Assembly: GCA_041736305.1 (NCBI GenBank)
Contig: JBGSTX010000387.1
Span: 1-32,438, forward strand
Reading direction: 5' to 3'
Origin: Oligoflexus sp.
GTDB taxonomy: Bacteria > Bdellovibrionota_B > Oligoflexia > Oligoflexales > Oligoflexaceae
Length of the DNA: 32,438 nucleotides
Under the pieces are notes generated by a model. It saw only the letters and a program-made list of their open reading frames with translations. It was not told the origin of the DNA and searched no databases. Positions 20,316 to 26,018 of this stretch are shown here, in pieces (positions within the stretch are counted from its first letter, which is position 1; each line of letters begins with the position of its first letter). A program made the position numbers and the translations under genes.

Positions 20316-21098
20316 ATGGCAGAAAATGGACAGAGTCGAGAAGATCATCTCAAGGTAATGGGTTTGTTCGAGCACGTTGAGGAACTGCGCTCACGTCTGG
20401 TTAAATCGATTCTGACCATCGTCGTGTTCTTCTTTCTTTGCTATGCCTACGCCGACGTTATCCTCCAGTACCTACGTATGCCACTCGTTCAAGTACTCCC
20501 TAGCGGCGCTAACGCTCTGCACTTTACCGGTCCGATGGACGTCTTCATGGCCAACGTCAAGCTTGGTCTCTTCGCAGCCCTTTTGCTCTCCTGCCCAGTT
20601 TGGCTTTATCAGTTCTGGAAATTTGTCGAGCCAGCTCTTTATCCCCACGAAAAAAAGTATGTGATGCCCTTTATTTGCGCGTCGGTCTTTCTCTTTGCAG
20701 TGGGCGTGAGCTTTTGTTTCTTTTTCATCGTCCCCATCGCACTCGAATACCTGATCGGCTTAGGGGTATCCATGGGCACGACTCCTATTATCACCATTAG
20801 TGACTACCTCTCGCTCCTCATGCTGATGATGATAGGTTTTGGAATGATCTTCGAAACACCAGTTATCCTCATTCTCCTGGCAATGCTCAACCTCGTTTCG
20901 GCTCAGACTCTCTCCGAGAATCGGAAGTTTGTGATCGTGGCGATATTCATTATTTCGGCTGTACTGACCCCTACACCTGACCCCATCTCGCAAATCGCTA
21001 TGGCCGGGCCTACCTGGTTGATGTTCGAAAGTTCTATACTCATCATCCGCTTTATAAAGCGGAAAGAAATTAAGGCGGAAGGAAGCAATGCGACCTAG
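20316..21098 (+). CDS. tatC: Twin-arginine translocase subunit TatC
   Basis: EHVEELRSRL, YQFWKFVEPALYPHEK, GMIFETP, SAVLTPTPDPISQ, six hydrophobic segments. Starts 1 nt after the polA stop. Confidence 0.95.
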   Translation: MAENGQSREDHLKVMGLFEHVEELRSRLVKSILTIVVFFFLCYAYADVILQYLRMPLVQVLPSGANALHFTGPMDVFMANVKLGLFAALLLSCPVWLYQFWKFVEPALYPHEKKYVMPFICASVFLFAVGVSFCFFFIVPIALEYLIGLGVSMGTTPIITISDYLSLLMLMMIGFGMIFETPVILILLAMLNLVSAQTLSENRKFVIVAIFIISAVLTPTPDPISQIAMAGPTWLMFESSILIIRFIKRKEIKAEGSNAT

Positions 21099-21801
21099 CC
21101 CTCTCGCGCTTATCGTCTTCGTGTGGACGACGCGAGCCCTTGCTGAAACAGCAGCAGCTCCTGAAGCTAGCGTTAAGCTTCGACAGAACGTCTGGGGTGT
21201 CGGTTTACAAAGTCGCCTCCTGCATTGGGGCGAGGACGAAAACGACCGCCTCCACTTCATGAGTCAGACCCTGGACGTGAACCGCGTATGGGTTCACGAG
21301 CAATGGTGGGCGAGCATCGATCTCTCCCTCATCCTTGGCCCAGTCAGCAAACGACTGCCGACGAGTCCTCCTATTGACTACAATGGCAGCGGCGTTGGAG
21401 CTCGCTTCGCTTACTCGCTTTTTTCAGATGGTCTTCGTCAACCCGGGGGTGACTGGGGCATTTTTCTTGGCGCTGAATCAATGGAGATTACGGGCCACTC
21501 TTATCGTCGCCGGGTATTAGAGGGTGGAGGTGTATCCGAAGGTTGGTTTGTGCGGAGTCGATGGATAGCGGCTATTCCAGGCGTCTTCTACAGCCGCCTC
21601 AAGCCGGGCCGGCCCAAGGGCAACCGTCCCGAATGGCTCATGACCCGTATCGAAGGTTATACCGTGCAAGTGGGACTTGCTCTCCCGATAAAAGCCGAAC
21701 TGATGATCAGTCAAACTTTGAATGGCGTGCGGGAAAAACGACGCTCGAACGTCCACGGTTATGCAGCCCTTCTTTCGCTTTCCGTCTGGCTCGGTATTTG
21801 A
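21088..21801 (+). CDS. Hypothetical secreted protein, possible outer-membrane beta-barrel
   Basis: Sec-like signal ending ALA-E, alternating beta-strand patterns (GVGARFAYS, WGIFLG, YTVQVGLALP) and C-terminal LLSLSVWLGI. Overlaps tatC by 11 nt. Confidence 0.65.
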   Translation: MRPSPLALIVFVWTTRALAETAAAPEASVKLRQNVWGVGLQSRLLHWGEDENDRLHFMSQTLDVNRVWVHEQWWASIDLSLILGPVSKRLPTSPPIDYNGSGVGARFAYSLFSDGLRQPGGDWGIFLGAESMEITGHSYRRRVLEGGGVSEGWFVRSRWIAAIPGVFYSRLKPGRPKGNRPEWLMTRIEGYTVQVGLALPIKAELMISQTLNGVREKRRSNVHGYAALLSLSVWLGI

Positions 21802-21858: not shown

Positions 21859-23190
21859 TTGAAGTATCTTTATGGGCTGCTTCTCAGCCTCACCCTCACC
21901 CCATCGGCCTCTCTCTATGCACAGTTCAAAGCTGAAAGCGTCAAAACCTGGCAGCTTAAGAATGGAATGAAGCTCCTGGTACTGGAAGATCATTCCATTC
22001 CCAATGCGAACATGTATACTTTTTGGAAAGTGGGATCGAGAAATGAAGCCCCTGGTATAACGGGCCTTTCGCATTTTTTTGAACATATGATGTTCAATGG
22101 CTCGAAGAATTATGGACCGGGCTCCTTTGATAAGGTCATGGAAGCTGCAGGCGGCTCCAACAATGCTTATACGACTGAAAATGTAACGGTCTATACCAAT
22201 TGGTTTCCGACCTCAGCGTTTTCAACGATCGCTGATCTCGAAGCCGATCGCATCGCATCCCTGCAGTTCGATGACAAAATGATTGAAAGCGAGCGGGGAG
22301 TTGTCCTCTCCGAGCGTTCGACTGCGCTGGAAAACGACCCCTGGGAACTCCTCTACCAAACCGTCCGGAGCGTCGCCTTCACCGCACATCCCTATAACTG
22401 GCCTGTTATCGGTTGGGAATCGGATATCAAGGCATGGAACAAGGATGATCTTATCCGTTATTTCCAGACTTATTATAATCCTGCGAACGCTGTCATGGTT
22501 ATCGCCGGAGATGTGAAGCCTGAGGAGATTCGAAGCCTAATTCAGCAAAAATTTGAACCTATTTCACGTCCCCCTTCAATACCAGCAGTACGCACCGTAG
22601 AGCCTCCTCAACAAGGCGAGCGCCGAGCATTTGTAGTAAAAGAAAGTAGTTCAAGTCCGCAGATCATCGTAGCTTTTCATACCCCGCAAACCAATCATCC
22701 CGACTATTATGCTCTCTCCCTGCTGAGCGAAATTCTCACTAGCGGGCCCTCTTCGCGTCTGGTTAAAAGCCTGGTCGATGAGAAGAGAATTGCCGCTGAC
22801 GTCAGCACGTCCATAAATCTGAGCCTAGATCCTGATCTTTTCATGATCTTTGCTACCGGCCTCGAAGGCAAGGACGCCCGCCGCCTCGAAAAGGTGCTCC
22901 TCGATGAACTCGAAAAACTGCGTACGCAAGGGGTGAAAGCCGAGGAGTTGGAAAAGGCCAAAAATCGCAGCCTAGTCGACTTCTATCGACGCATGGAAAC
23001 GATCAATGGCAAAGCTCAGCTGCTGGGAGACTACGAAGTGTTTTTTGGTGGCTATCAAAAGCTCTTCCAAGCTTCTGATCTCTATAAGGCAGTGAGCCTG
23101 GCCGACATCAACCGCGTGGTCAAAACTTACTTCCAAAAGCAAAACCGCACCGTAGGTGTACTTGATAAACGCGAAGCCGGGGATTTATAG
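21859..23190 (+). CDS. M16B zinc peptidase, catalytic subunit
   Basis: Signal peptide, inverted zinc motif HFFEH, NAYT, ERGVVLSER, HPYNWPVIGW. Confidence 0.93.
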   Translation: MKYLYGLLLSLTLTPSASLYAQFKAESVKTWQLKNGMKLLVLEDHSIPNANMYTFWKVGSRNEAPGITGLSHFFEHMMFNGSKNYGPGSFDKVMEAAGGSNNAYTTENVTVYTNWFPTSAFSTIADLEADRIASLQFDDKMIESERGVVLSERSTALENDPWELLYQTVRSVAFTAHPYNWPVIGWESDIKAWNKDDLIRYFQTYYNPANAVMVIAGDVKPEEIRSLIQQKFEPISRPPSIPAVRTVEPPQQGERRAFVVKESSSSPQIIVAFHTPQTNHPDYYALSLLSEILTSGPSSRLVKSLVDEKRIAADVSTSINLSLDPDLFMIFATGLEGKDARRLEKVLLDELEKLRTQGVKAEELEKAKNRSLVDFYRRMETINGKAQLLGDYEVFFGGYQKLFQASDLYKAVSLADINRVVKTYFQKQNRTVGVLDKREAGDL

Positions 23191-23192
23191 CC

Positions 23193-24608
23193 ATGAAACT
23201 AAAAAACCTGCGACCTATCTTTGTCTTTGCTTTCGCCTTATTTTTTTCTGGAATCGCCGAGGCAGCAGATTTTAAGCTACCCACCTATCAAAAGGCTCGT
23301 CTTGAAAACGGTATACAAATCTTCTTGATGCCGCAGAAGGAAGTCCCTCTCGTCCATTTTACCGTGGGCATTCAGGGGGGGAGCTCTCTCGACCCTCAGC
23401 AGCTAGCAGGTCTGGCCTCATTTACCACGGAGGCCCTCAAGCTCGGCAGCAAGAATTTCAAGAAAAATCAGATAGAGGAGCGCCTAGATTTCCTTGGCGC
23501 AGAGCTGAGTGCCAATGCACGAGCGGACATTTCGACGATCGATCTGTCGATGGCGGCGAAGGATGCTCCTCAACTCCTCCCCCTCTTAGCCGATCTCATT
23601 ATGGCTCCCACGTTCCCCGAACAGGAGATTATCAAGCTCAAAGAAAGGACTATATCGGATCTCAAAAAGGCGAAGGAGAGCCCGAAGCAGCTGGCTGATC
23701 AATACTTCAACAAATTGGTCTTTGGCCAGCATCCCTACGGTCGTCCGGTGGATGGCTACACCCTCAGTATCAGCCGCATCAAGCGCCAGGATCTCTTAAA
23801 TTTCCACAGAGAGGCTTTTCGCCCACAGAGAATGAGCATCGGCATTGCCGGAAACATCGAAGTTAAAGAGATGGAAGCCCTTGTCCGCCGCATTTTCGGC
23901 AACTGGCGCCCCGCTGAAGACTCGCGGGAAGTCATTTCTCTAGCTATCCCAGATCCCAAAGCCCCTGCAGAGACCCGCGTCTTACTCGTGAACAAACGGG
24001 ATGCAAGTGAAACAACTTTCCGGATCGGGGGTCTCGGCGTAGCACGCAATCATCAGGATTGGGTAGGGCTACAGGTCATCAACACTATACTCGGTGGCCG
24101 CTTCACATCTCTTCTCAATGAGGCTCTCCGCATTAAAAGCGGCCTCACGTATGGCGCATGGGCCCGTTTCAACGGCTTCAAGACCAGTGGAAGCTTTGCT
24201 ATGGGCTCATTCACAGCCAATGAGAACAGCTTTAAGGCGATTGATCTCGCCCTTGAGGTCTATAAAAAATTTCTCGCTGAAGGTCTCGATCAAAAAACTC
24301 TCGACTCAGCTAAGACCTATCTCAAAGGCCAATTTCCCCCTCGCTATGAGACTCTCGAAAGCCTCAGTGGACTCTTAGTCGATATGTGGGCCTATCAGCT
24401 GCCTGAGCAGGTGGTTAATGACTTCGCAGAACAGGTCGACGGCCTGACTCTCGCCCGCAGCCAAGAACTTATAAAAACCTACTTCCCGGCGAAGAATCTC
24501 AACATCCTCATGATAGGGAAGTCCGCCGAACTTTTCACTGGAGCTCAGAAATACGGCAGCGTTGTCCAAAGTGATATGGACAGGATTGATGAAACGATTC
24601 TACCTTGA
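23193..24608 (+). CDS. M16B zinc peptidase, non-catalytic partner subunit
   Basis: Signal peptide and M16 fold motifs (LENG, HPYG, ILGG) but no HxxEH. Carries the R/Y pair (LRIKSGLTYG) typical of the complementary half of heterodimeric M16B enzymes. Confidence 0.88.
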   Translation: MKLKNLRPIFVFAFALFFSGIAEAADFKLPTYQKARLENGIQIFLMPQKEVPLVHFTVGIQGGSSLDPQQLAGLASFTTEALKLGSKNFKKNQIEERLDFLGAELSANARADISTIDLSMAAKDAPQLLPLLADLIMAPTFPEQEIIKLKERTISDLKKAKESPKQLADQYFNKLVFGQHPYGRPVDGYTLSISRIKRQDLLNFHREAFRPQRMSIGIAGNIEVKEMEALVRRIFGNWRPAEDSREVISLAIPDPKAPAETRVLLVNKRDASETTFRIGGLGVARNHQDWVGLQVINTILGGRFTSLLNEALRIKSGLTYGAWARFNGFKTSGSFAMGSFTANENSFKAIDLALEVYKKFLAEGLDQKTLDSAKTYLKGQFPPRYETLESLSGLLVDMWAYQLPEQVVNDFAEQVDGLTLARSQELIKTYFPAKNLNILMIGKSAELFTGAQKYGSVVQSDMDRIDETILP

Positions 24609-24658: not shown

Positions 24659-24685
24659 TCAAGCCCTCTCTCAAGCTACCGAAAA
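24659..24685 (+). promoter_or_regulatory. Putative sigma28 (FliA) promoter for the zinc-finger gene
   Basis: TCAA-N15-ACCGAAAA versus consensus TAAA-N15-GCCGATAA; ends 21 nt before the ATG. Confidence 0.45.
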
Positions 24686-24706
24686 CGAGAGGGGGGGTCA
24701 CAAGCG

Positions 24707-25423
24707 ATGCAGGGCAAACTGATACTACAACAGTGGTCAAAGCCAATAATCCGTAAATTGATACGGCAGGGCAGTGTTTTCACCTGTAGCCTTTGCAAAG
24801 GCAATTATAGTAGTCGAGGAGAGGCTTACGCCTGCCTTTCCACCTGTTGGGACGAACTCGCAGCGATCCACCCTATTCACATCGCGCATCGGATGGGCCA
24901 AAAGAGTCTCTTCCGCTGTAATTACTGCAGTCGTGATTACGACGAAGATTTCGAAGCTCTAAGCTGTGCAGAGCAATGCCGTCAAAGCCGCGATAGGCGG
25001 CATGAGCGAGAGCAGCGCATCGCCGGTATTACTCCCGTAGCTCGCCCCAAGCTTGCCCTGCGAACGAGTCGAGTGGGCCAGCCTATGCGAGCAGGAAAAC
25101 CCTCCCTTCTGCGAAGCCAAGGAGCAAAGCCGAAGACAGATATAGAAGCAAAGCCATCGAGCTCAGCGACAAGCCTGCCTCATGCCGAAAGCCCTGTGGT
25201 AACTGAGAATCCAAGCAGCGAATCCCCACCCCCAGGAGGAAAAGCCACTCCAGGAAAAGGTCGGAGCAGGATGTCATTTGCCAAACCCTACGTCAGGCAC
25301 AATGCTAAATATAAGTGTGCTTGCTGCAATACACTCTATTTCACTAAGTCCGAAACCGAGACCTGCTTTATGGGGCACTTTGATGCAGAAGGATTTGAGA
25401 TCGTAAAATCCGAGACAGTCTAA
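24707..25423 (+). CDS. Hypothetical protein with three C2H2-spaced, Cys-substituted zinc fingers
   Basis: Three copies of [FY]xCx2Cx3Yx8Cx3[CH] at aa 25-47, 69-91 and 202-224, with a basic/Pro/Ser-rich linker. Confidence 0.8.
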   Translation: MQGKLILQQWSKPIIRKLIRQGSVFTCSLCKGNYSSRGEAYACLSTCWDELAAIHPIHIAHRMGQKSLFRCNYCSRDYDEDFEALSCAEQCRQSRDRRHEREQRIAGITPVARPKLALRTSRVGQPMRAGKPSLLRSQGAKPKTDIEAKPSSSATSLPHAESPVVTENPSSESPPPGGKATPGKGRSRMSFAKPYVRHNAKYKCACCNTLYFTKSETETCFMGHFDAEGFEIVKSETV

Positions 25424-25439: not shown

Positions 25440-25459
25440 AAAAGGGGCCTTGCGGCCCC
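25440..25459 (-). terminator. Intrinsic terminator of hpf
   Basis: Minus strand reads GGGGCC-GCAA-GGCCCC-TTTT (GNRA tetraloop), 26 nt after the hpf stop. Confidence 0.75.
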
Positions 25460-25485: not shown

Positions 25486-25893
25486 TCATCCGCGGCGACG
25501 CATCACCGCTTGTTCATATTTTAATATTTCGCTCGCATCAATTTCATGGAGTTCATGAAGATCTGGAATTGCGATACCCGTATCGCGAGCTTTGATATGT
25601 TTGTGATCTTTGAGTTTTTCCTTCTTTCGCTGAAGCTGCGTTACGAGTTTATCGATCATATGATCGATAGAGCCGTACATGTCTTCGCAAGAGTGTTCTA
25701 CGTTGAGTTTGAAGCCATCGCCGCCGCTTAGGGTGCAAAGGACATGCTGCTCATACTTGTCGACGGAAAAAGTGACGTGGGCTTCGATGGGTTTAGTAAC
25801 AAATTTTCCCACTTCGATCTGAATTTTCTCTCTTGCGTACTTTTCTAATCCTGGCGAGGTTTCCATGTGCTTAAATGAAAATCGAAACTGCAT
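25486..25893 (-). CDS. hpf: Ribosome hibernation promoting factor (HPF/RaiA family)
   Basis: ATG 25893 with GGAG SD. FKHMETSPGLEKYAREKI, DMYGSID..IDKL..QL.R.KEK, plus a short C-terminal extension. Confidence 0.9.
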   Translation of the reverse strand: MQFRFSFKHMETSPGLEKYAREKIQIEVGKFVTKPIEAHVTFSVDKYEQHVLCTLSGGDGFKLNVEHSCEDMYGSIDHMIDKLVTQLQRKKEKLKDHKHIKARDTGIAIPDLHELHEIDASEILKYEQAVMRRRG

Positions 25894-25990
25894 AAGCAAC
25901 TCCAAAGAACGGTTAGCCGACTGAAATATAAGTTCTTTTCTGCGGGGACTGCTTGGCTCCTTTCAGTCCCAAAGCCTCCTTTCCTAATTA

Positions 25991-26018
25991 GTATCGGCTT
26001 AAAGTGTCGGTAAATGTA
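25991..26018 (-). promoter_or_regulatory. Putative sigma28 (FliA) promoter for hpf
   Basis: Minus strand reads (C)TACA-N16-GCCGATAC. The -10 matches 7/8; the -35 and spacer are imperfect. Confidence 0.45.

Follow-up and report, generated by a model that had tools for sequence, protein, structure and literature searches.

The classical beta-beta-alpha zinc finger is the commonest DNA-reading module of animals. To our knowledge, such fingers are regarded as rare in bacteria, where they are represented by the atypical Ros/MucR domain. What, then, is the protein encoded by a bacterial gene in which the spacing of this finger recurs three times? The gene lies in a stretch of 32,438 nucleotides (nt) of Oligoflexus sp. 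(NCBI GenBank assembly GCA_041736305.1, contig JBGSTX010000387.1, forward strand), which is called here the window, and corresponds to an open reading frame (ORF) on the plus strand at 24707-25423, stop codon included, with an ATG start and a product of 238 amino acids (aa). As far as sequence comparison can tell, the product belongs to an undescribed, sizeable and modular family of bacterial zinc-finger proteins in Oligoflexia, and this is with high probability a genuine family of zinc fingers with a fold of the classical type. The fold class is already known; new, by the literature searched, are the family itself, the two-zinc head, the ligand sets and the mode of regulation. For the function, the best explanation as a whole is that the protein binds nucleic acid and serves the FliA (sigma28) programme as an architectural regulator; to this we give a probability of about 0.5.

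The translation of the ORF contains three repeats, at residues F25-C47, F69-C91 and Y202-H224, which all fit the pattern [FY]-x-C-x2-C-x3-Y-x8-C-x3-[C/H], with a ligand spacing of C-x2-C-x12-C-x3-[C/H]. Finger 1 (residues 25-47; 24779-24847, plus strand) has the ligand set CCCC, formed by C27, C30, C43 and C47; finger 2 (residues 69-91; 24911-24979, plus strand) is also CCCC, with C71, C74, C87 and C91; and finger 3 (residues 202-224; 25310-25378, plus strand) is CCCH, with C204, C207, C220 and H224. A Glu stands nine positions past the second Cys in each unit (E39, E83 and E216). An earlier annotation of the window, hereafter the sequence-only reading, had quoted the three repeats, a Glu at a shared helix position and a gap of about 110 aa before the third finger. 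The repeats are present in the translation exactly as quoted, the Glu is in place, and finger 2 ends at residue 91 and finger 3 starts at residue 202.

The pattern was counted across the whole 5.0-Mb assembly, in all of its 10,381 stop-to-stop frames that are 100 aa or longer. Any C-x2-C-x12-[CH]-x3-[CH] motif occurs in six of them, three copies occur only in the frame at 24707-25423, and the full pattern including both aromatic residues is found in this frame only. A chance origin of the triple pattern is excluded, since a single frame in 10,381 carries it. The start codon of the gene is supported by the orthologues, which keep an ATG 24-32 codons ahead of the first Cys. The gene is native, because its G+C content equals that of the genome (0.517 versus 0.513), and the gene order PolA-TatC-orf237-zinc-finger gene, followed by the convergent hpf and then by RecD2, is a conserved synteny. 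Horizontal transfer from eukaryotes was considered and rejected, given the genome-like G+C content and the synteny across the whole taxonomic family. The product is best explained as a cytoplasmic protein.

Searches with the single protein were nearly silent. A Pfam scan (E <= 10) returned only C1_2, at E 0.13; the NCBIfam scan gave zero matches; a search of the PDB sequences found nothing under E 0.35; and a word-indexed homologue search recovered the query alone. A protein atlas yielded only low-scoring, poorly recognised matches to unnamed viral clusters, which were set aside. The exhaustive HMMER search returned 212 cluster representatives at E <= 0.001, 130 of them at E <= 1e-10. Ten representatives were looked up by their source names: four are named, all as 'hypothetical protein', two of these with the taxon labels 'Oligoflexales bacterium' and 'Proteobacteria/Pseudomonadota bacterium', and six are nameless. 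The description of the protein as uncharacterised in the sequence-only reading is thus borne out, and a full-length match to a characterised family was looked for in Pfam, NCBIfam and PDB and not found. The family was also not found in the literature on zinc fingers of Oligoflexus, Oligoflexia or Bdellovibrionota, judged by titles and the openings of abstracts. Orthologues are present in Oligoflexus tunisiensis Shr3 and in an Oligoflexus sp. metagenome-assembled genome; the gene occurs in 21/21 genomes of the taxonomic family of the window, and the family profile matches 95/131 genomes of its phylum, including 61 of the 83 high-quality ones.

The sequence-only reading turned on whether the Cys/His positions are conserved in homologues. 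In an alignment of 46 homologues, with 20-52% identity to the query, eleven ligands are invariant (C27, C30 and C43 of finger 1; all four of finger 2, C71, C74, C87 and C91; and C204, C207, C220 and H224 of finger 3), and C47 is retained in at least 90%. Three surface residues that are not ligands, R197, Y202 and T213, are strictly conserved in the same alignment. A census of fingers in the 150 best family representatives, using the spacing C-x2-C-x12-X-x3-X, counted 192 CCCH and 281 CCCC fingers and no CCHH or CCHC finger. The arrangement CCCC-CCCC-CCCH is present in 104 of these proteins; 26 have four to seven fingers, and the other 20 are partial. The extra fingers are all CCCH in 25 of the 26, and one protein ('aaab') has a third CCCC finger instead. 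The distance from finger 1 to finger 2 is 43 or 44 residues in 115/150.

Profile comparisons in hhalign aligned finger 1 with finger 2 at a probability of 96.5% (E 8.9e-10, 38 columns in register), finger 1 with finger 3 at 95.1% (E 3.3e-8) and finger 2 with finger 3 at 90.7% (E 1.2e-6), the last two also in register. The register takes in the basic lead-in strand ahead of each finger, and short Cys-rich profiles may flatter such scores. By these alignments, the three units are homologous to one another.

One genus of a sister family is informative about the metal sites. In 7/7 of its genomes (loci L036 and L061-L066), finger 3 is a true CCHH finger, C-x2-C-x12-H-x3-H, and fingers 1 and 2 are without the fourth Cys: in finger 2 the position is taken by Asp, and finger 1 has acquired a Cys three residues upstream. 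The other genera of the same taxonomic family keep CCCC/CCCC/CCCH in 3/3 genomes. The changes are confined to metal-ligand residues, which is the pattern that zinc sites would show. Because the ligands are invariant in the family alignment and are swapped ligand for ligand in this genus, we infer that one zinc ion is bound per finger.

Sites so rich in Cys could also serve as a thiol redox or zinc-status switch, in which all-Cys sites would release zinc upon oxidation or zinc limitation and thereby alter the activity of the protein or buffer zinc. Such a switch, by analogy with other Cys4 zinc proteins, would suit the 11 Cys ligands in 238 aa, the use of Cys where the classical fold tolerates His, and a third ligand of finger 3 that is Cys or His by lineage. 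Since this ligand varies by lineage, the richness in Cys is not imposed by the fold; it reflects a choice of the lineage. The conserved neighbourhood, however, is without redox genes, and the reiteration of the CCCH unit together with the strict conservation of R197, Y202 and T213 points to a binding function. We consider the switch improbable as the main role; it could also be a layer on top of the regulator proposed here.

The AlphaFold2 model, built from the 46-sequence alignment, divides the protein into three parts. The predicted local distance difference test score (pLDDT) is above 90 at about residues 20-100 and 190-230, and falls to 50-65 over residues 110-185. The N-terminal two-zinc module (residues 12-109; 24740-25033, plus strand), with pLDDT mostly above 90, contains fingers 1 and 2 with long helices; its strands are modelled at 18-21, 24-27, 57-60 and 68-71, and its helices at 37-53 and 81-105. 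The linker (residues 110-185; 25034-25261, plus strand) is basic in its first half and rich in Ser, Pro and acidic residues in its second half. It is without secondary structure in the model, in agreement with the disordered linker of the sequence-only reading. The C-terminal finger module (residues 186-238; 25262-25420, plus strand) holds finger 3 between a basic lead-in strand (YVRH) and the acidic tail HFDAEGFE. The sequence-only reading had also placed two fingers close together. Their closeness stands, and a beads-on-a-string arrangement does not: at the fixed spacing of 43-44 residues, fingers 1 and 2 are predicted to pack into a single compact module with two zincs.

Each modelled unit has the order strand-strand(-short strand)-helix; the hairpin carries the first Cys pair, and the helix the second pair of ligands. 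In a separate model of the C-terminal finger, built from 25 sequences, the pLDDT is 85.7, with strands at 10-13 and 16-19 and a helix at 29-38 of the segment. This predicted model superposes on whole C2H2 fingers at 1.3-2.2 Å over 28-36 residues (Z 2.2-3.2), among them SUPERMAN 2l1o_A (Z 3.2, 2.2 Å, 36/37 residues), ZFY 1klr (1.3 Å, 29/30), ZFAT 2rv3 (1.5 Å, 30/36), ZNF692 (1.8 Å, 29/30 residues) and likewise Miz-1; C2H2 fingers fill at least 24 of its top 50 Foldseek rows. When the profile of the C-terminal finger was compared with all PDB sequences, 47 chains were matched at E <= 10, of which 44 are eukaryotic C2H2-type by molecule name, the best being 1mey_C (E 0.0013). The full-length profile reaches the Zif268 group at E 0.002-0.008.

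The core positions agree with this likeness. Four residues past the second Cys, the CCCH fingers have Y in 59%, F in 26% and H in 10%, and the CCCC fingers Y in 63%, H in 25% and F in 11%; at helix position +4, the CCCH fingers have V in 78% and A in 17%, and the CCCC fingers A in 93%. The classical spacing and aromatic core described from the letters alone are therefore matched by C-x2-C-x12-X-x3-X and its core positions, and the structural comparisons suggested at that time return a predicted beta-beta-alpha fold with one extra strand. The units are predicted with high confidence to be extended classical beta-beta-alpha fingers with an additional N-terminal strand.

Compared with the classical C2H2 fingers of TFIIIA, Krueppel and Zif268 (Pfam zf-C2H2), the family shares the spacing, the aromatic residue four positions past the second Cys and the aliphatic residue at helix +4, together with the predicted hairpin and helix, PDB profile matches almost only to C2H2 chains, and a CCHH set in one genus. 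It differs in its CCCC and CCCH sets, in the extra lead-in strand of each finger and in its sub-threshold Pfam scores: no Pfam C2H2 model reaches its threshold on the 46 members, with zf-H2C2_2 in six (best E 0.0018) and zf-C2H2_4 in 6/46 (best E 0.0053). Two His as third and fourth ligands are found in none of the units of the window protein, which have C/C, C/C and C/H at these positions. Unlike classical arrays, the family is without TGEKP linkers, has fingers 1 and 2 in a fixed module with long helices, and is bacterial, lineage-restricted and preceded by a sigma28-type promoter. A zinc ribbon, with both ligand pairs on beta-hairpin knuckles, is not what the model shows, since the second ligand pair lies in a helix in all three modelled units; weak Pfam ribbon matches to the 46 members occur only at E >= 0.013.

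The Ros finger (PMC9779718) has a 9-residue spacer, C-x2-C-x3-F-x2-L-x2-H-x3-H-H, and is the one finger of a globular domain that has 58 residues and the fold beta-beta-beta-alpha-alpha. Ros/MucR proteins resemble the present family in being bacterial and in combining a Cys2 knuckle with ligands from a helix, and the H-NS-like model proposed for MucR has a similar layout, in which a flexible region joins the structured N-terminal part to a small zinc finger at the C-terminus. The family differs from them in a spacer of 12 residues, in at least three fingers, in window units without the His pair, and in a modelled C-terminal finger with three short strands and one helix and no second helix. The window protein has no sequence match to Ros/MucR in Pfam (E <= 10) or NCBIfam. 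Another prokaryote-world case is AFV1p06 of an archaeal virus, which is a single classical-type finger with one His replaced by Glu and binds DNA (PMC3541406). Both it and the family have a classical motif with a replaced His, a structural extension and disordered tails. AFV1p06, on the other hand, is a single finger with a CCH+E set from the viral and archaeal world, and no homology to it was detected.

The relatives show that the family is not an isolated oddity; it is sizeable and modular. Their layout is a two-finger CCCC head, a disordered linker and then one to five CCCH fingers. Paralogues of 418-498 aa have the same two-finger head with three or four CCCH fingers, each preceded by KF[FY]RDGAKYVC and separated by disordered spacers of 25-110 residues, and a relative of 631 aa has a very long acidic linker. 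Free-standing proteins of 35-56 aa consist of the CCCH unit alone. Four of their genes, of 35-52 codons, lie at L037:3005-3109, L038:3041-3169 (minus strand), L040:3006-3161 and L028:3056-3163, and the consensus of these small proteins is K-[YF]-x-R-D-G-A-[KR]-Y-V-C-x2-C-x2-K-[YF]-F-[TS]-K-x-E-V-E-x-C-[FY]-D-[SA]-H. The CCCH unit is the portable part of the family. In the genome of the window, whose assembly is 92.7% complete, only the three-finger type is seen. Single-domain zinc-finger micro-proteins of Haloferax volcanii are likewise free-standing and shorter than 70 aa (PMC6562870); they are of the archaeal C(P)XCG type and non-homologous, whereas those of the present family are copies of the multi-finger unit.

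Around the genes for paralogues and micro-proteins, no conserved neighbourhood and no recurring partner gene was seen. As a separate observation, a multi-finger paralogue is directly followed by a prolyl oligopeptidase gene in two Oligoflexus genomes (L031:1930-4197, minus strand, and L033:4040-6109); this pairing was not seen in another genus.

A sigma28/FliA-type promoter precedes the zinc-finger gene at 24659-24685 on the plus strand, with the -35 element TCAAG at 24659-24663, a spacer of 15 nt and the -10 element ACCGAAAA at 24678-24685. The Escherichia coli sigma28 consensus has a TAAAG-like -35 element, a GCCGATAA-like -10 element and a spacing of about 15 nt. TCAAG-N15-ACCGAAAA agrees with the consensus at 4/5 positions of the -35 and 6/8 of the -10 element. 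In a genome-wide search 8-90 nt before ORF starts, T[AC]AAG-Nx-CCGA[AT] was found 52 times with a spacer of 15 and 40 times with a spacer of 16, and only 3-13 times at each of the spacers 11-14 and 17-20; the motif thus marks a genuine class of promoters that has the geometry of sigma28. In the orthologues, a relaxed form of the motif is located within 100 nt before the start in 20/26 loci, mostly at -44 to -55, whereas 1000 shuffles gave 0.40 on average and never more than 3. The promoter claimed in the sequence-only reading is thus not only present, it is also phylogenetically conserved. CCGAT[AG] occurs upstream of eight of the 11 paralogue or micro-protein genes, and TTAAG-N15-CCGAT upstream of 2/4 free-standing CCCH genes (L038 and L040). 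A gene for FliA is present in the genome (TIGR02479, 288.8 bits, above the cut-off), and the zinc-finger gene appears, by its promoter motif, to be under FliA dependence.

The genes at the 20 best motif sites include 13 without a Pfam match, and a sigma54 activator with a PocR sensor, a PilB-like ATPase, hydrolases, a cytochrome c and a Ser/Thr kinase. This mix matches the broad, mostly non-flagellar regulon of Bdellovibrio. In Bdellovibrio bacteriovorus, the attack-phase consensus TTAAG-N16-CCGATA is present in 92/140 promoters (PMC3627812). It is almost identical to T[AC]AAG-N15/16-CCGA[AT], and the FliA regulon described there is large, mostly non-flagellar and includes many unknown proteins. 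The two cases differ in that Bdellovibrio belongs to a different class of bacteria.

Some observations concern the motif itself. T[AC]AAG-N15/16-CCGA[AT] has 92 sites genome-wide (for example C10:7151, C81:3977 and C82:1079), which precede mostly proteins of unknown family. The upstream regions of the eight flagellin genes look unlike this class. No strict site was found before flgM. The base composition ahead of all 884 GCCGATA[AGT] sites in the genome gave no -35 signal, because most of these sites are in coding DNA.

The promoter overlaps an inverted repeat at 24664-24695 (plus strand), with the arms CCCTCTCTC (24664-24672) and GAGAGGGGG (24687-24695) and the -10 element in the loop. The left arm, CCCTCTCTC, falls in the spacer between the -35 and -10 elements, and the right arm, GAGAGGGGG, covers the Shine-Dalgarno sequence. 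Folded as RNA, the repeat gives -15.3 kcal/mol (z = -2.16). In the orthologues, the same place is occupied by hairpins whose arm sequences are unrelated, with z < -2 in 11/20 loci carrying the promoter motif, and a T-run follows the hairpin in four of those loci. The leader hairpin may double as a terminator of the upstream gene. A transcript starting about 7 nt past the -10 element would lack the upstream arm, so that read-through transcripts would be masked or terminated and expression would be left to the sigma28 promoter.

The zinc-finger gene converges on hpf, as the sequence-only reading had it. The hpf gene, for the ribosome hibernation-promoting factor (HPF), is located at 25486-25905 on the minus strand (Pfam Ribosomal_S30AE, E 1.2e-18; TIGR00741, 54.5 bits versus a cut-off of 40.9). 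Its true start is probably the ATG at 25893 and not the TTG at 25905, because this ATG has a GGAG 8 nt upstream and is closely followed by the beginning of the Pfam match. A sigma28-type -10 element, GCCGATAC, lies upstream of hpf at 25991-25998 on the minus strand, and is GCCGATAAT in most relatives. GCCGAT[AG] precedes hpf in 16/18 loci, at 90-105 nt in 15 of them and at 35 nt in one, and the -35 element is a variant, CCT[TA]CAT. From these elements, hpf seems to belong to the FliA programme of this taxonomic family, and since both genes have sigma28-type -10 elements, they are probably in the same programme.

This linkage invites the view that the protein is a ribosome or translation factor that acts with HPF, its fingers binding rRNA or ribosomal proteins during hibernation. 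The convergent position of hpf in 17/20 loci of the same taxonomic family, the sigma28-type -10 elements of both genes, and small zinc-binding ribosomal proteins among the weak structural rows speak for it. The linkage, however, is convergent and does not form an operon; hpf is the neighbour in 0/6 loci of other taxonomic families, two of these on short contigs; the paralogue and micro-protein genes are away from translation genes; and the ribosomal structural rows are at noise level. We give this view little credence.

In the architectural regulator that we favour, transcription would start from the FliA-type promoter, read-through transcripts would be terminated or translationally masked by the hairpin, and only the mRNA started by sigma28 would be translated. 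The setting of the proposal is the FliA programme, which in the related predator Bdellovibrio is that of a motile, non-growing state. During this programme, the CCCH finger and the basic linker would bind to a nucleic acid, DNA being the most likely one. Anchoring of the protein would fall to the N-terminal module, via self-association or a docking partner, and the linker, of about 75-110 disordered residues, would tether the CCCH unit to it. The logic would be that of MucR/H-NS-type regulators, with a structured head, a flexible linker and a small zinc-finger DNA binder.

The charge and the variable positions of the proteins are consistent with such a binder. The family has a median isoelectric point of 8.9 and median charges of +4 for the N-terminal module, +3 for the C-terminal finger and +6 for the first half of the linker, whose median length is 80 aa and whose second half has a charge of -3. 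The hairpin of the C-terminal finger is K/R-rich. Variability is highest at helix positions +2 and +6 (3.6 and 3.1 bits), which canonically read bases, and positions -1 (T in 84%) and +3 (E/D in 90%) are fixed. Taken by itself, nucleic-acid binding as the activity has, from these sequence features, roughly even or slightly poorer prospects.

Several points weigh against the proposed regulator. A single finger binds DNA weakly, and the fingers of the family are joined by disordered linkers of 25-110 residues and not by TGEKP-type ones; in addition, helix position +3 is a conserved Glu, and the finger is followed by an acidic tail, HFDxEGxE. Foldseek returned nothing at E <= 0.001 for either the whole model or that of the C-terminal finger, and the best VIA Z for the latter is 3.4; the structural matches are individually insignificant, as is usual for domains of 30 residues. 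The VIA search with the whole model found only helical-hairpin rows over residues 12-109 (Z <= 4.8) and no named fold for the N-terminal module, which does not by itself make the fold a new one. On the side of regulation, the -10 element of the window fits GCCGATAA at only 6/8 positions, and the assignment to FliA was made only from the consensus. Strict sites occur upstream of 0/8 flagellin genes, with one near match, and of 1/7 genes for methyl-accepting chemotaxis proteins, and none of the 20 best sites is before a flagellar gene. The co-occurrence of the family with FliA is uninformative (FliA in 124/131 phylum genomes versus the family in 95/131), because FliA is nearly universal in the phylum.

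Part of this evidence would also suit a protein-protein adaptor or scaffold, in which the fingers act as recognition modules of the CCHC FOG or UBZ type and link one or several copies of a partner to the docking target of the N-terminal module, with the free single fingers as competitors. A conserved acidic helix face (E/D in 90% at +3) and the acidic tail past the last ligand would fit an adaptor, as would the long disordered linkers between fingers and the variable finger number; the matches include the UBZ of NDP52 (1.4 Å, 28 residues), TAX1BP1 and FOG-1 1srk_A (E 0.14), and the N-terminal module has no DNA-binding structural neighbour. The protein is nevertheless basic overall with a K/R-rich finger hairpin, its variability is focused on the base-contact positions +2 and +6, and the paralogue and micro-protein genes are without a conserved adjacent partner gene. 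An adaptor is a possible, if rather unlikely, account.

The regulator of the FliA programme can also be extended to a bolder form. Oligoflexia would have made a reiterable nucleic-acid-reading unit, used in arrays of up to five fingers on a two-zinc head, with competing free micro-proteins, and wired together with hpf to the FliA programme; in motile, non-growing cells, the proteins would silence or compact the nucleoid (or RNA) globally and in dependence on zinc. This extension is speculative and we hold it to be unlikely. If it were true, the family would be a bacterial counterpart of the eukaryotic poly-zinc-finger proteins and a test case for the classical finger being ancient in bacteria.

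What is new in the family is its size, modularity and regulation. With versions of one, three and up to seven fingers, it provides a natural experiment on the choice of ligands by the classical fold, and a new marker of a broad FliA programme common to the Oligoflexia group and Bdellovibrio. The orthologue of the cultivable Oligoflexus tunisiensis is an entry point to the roles of multi-finger proteins in bacteria.

Between the convergent zinc-finger and hpf genes, a GC hairpin, GGGGCC-TTGC-GGCCCC, is located at 25444-25459 (no strand assigned). It is followed by TTTTCC on the minus strand, and on the plus strand a T-rich stretch begins 6 nt later. The hairpin was not flagged in a terminator scan; it is probably, on weak grounds, a shared terminator of the two genes.

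Further upstream, orf237 (21088-21801) encodes a protein of 237 aa with a clear signal peptide, is conserved beside tatC across the order, and has no family match in Pfam or NCBIfam. In other genera of the taxonomic family, orf237 is directly ahead of the zinc-finger gene. Two M16 peptidase genes (21859-24608) separate them only in the genus of the window and, because the other genera are without the pair at this place, represent an insertion into the conserved gene order.

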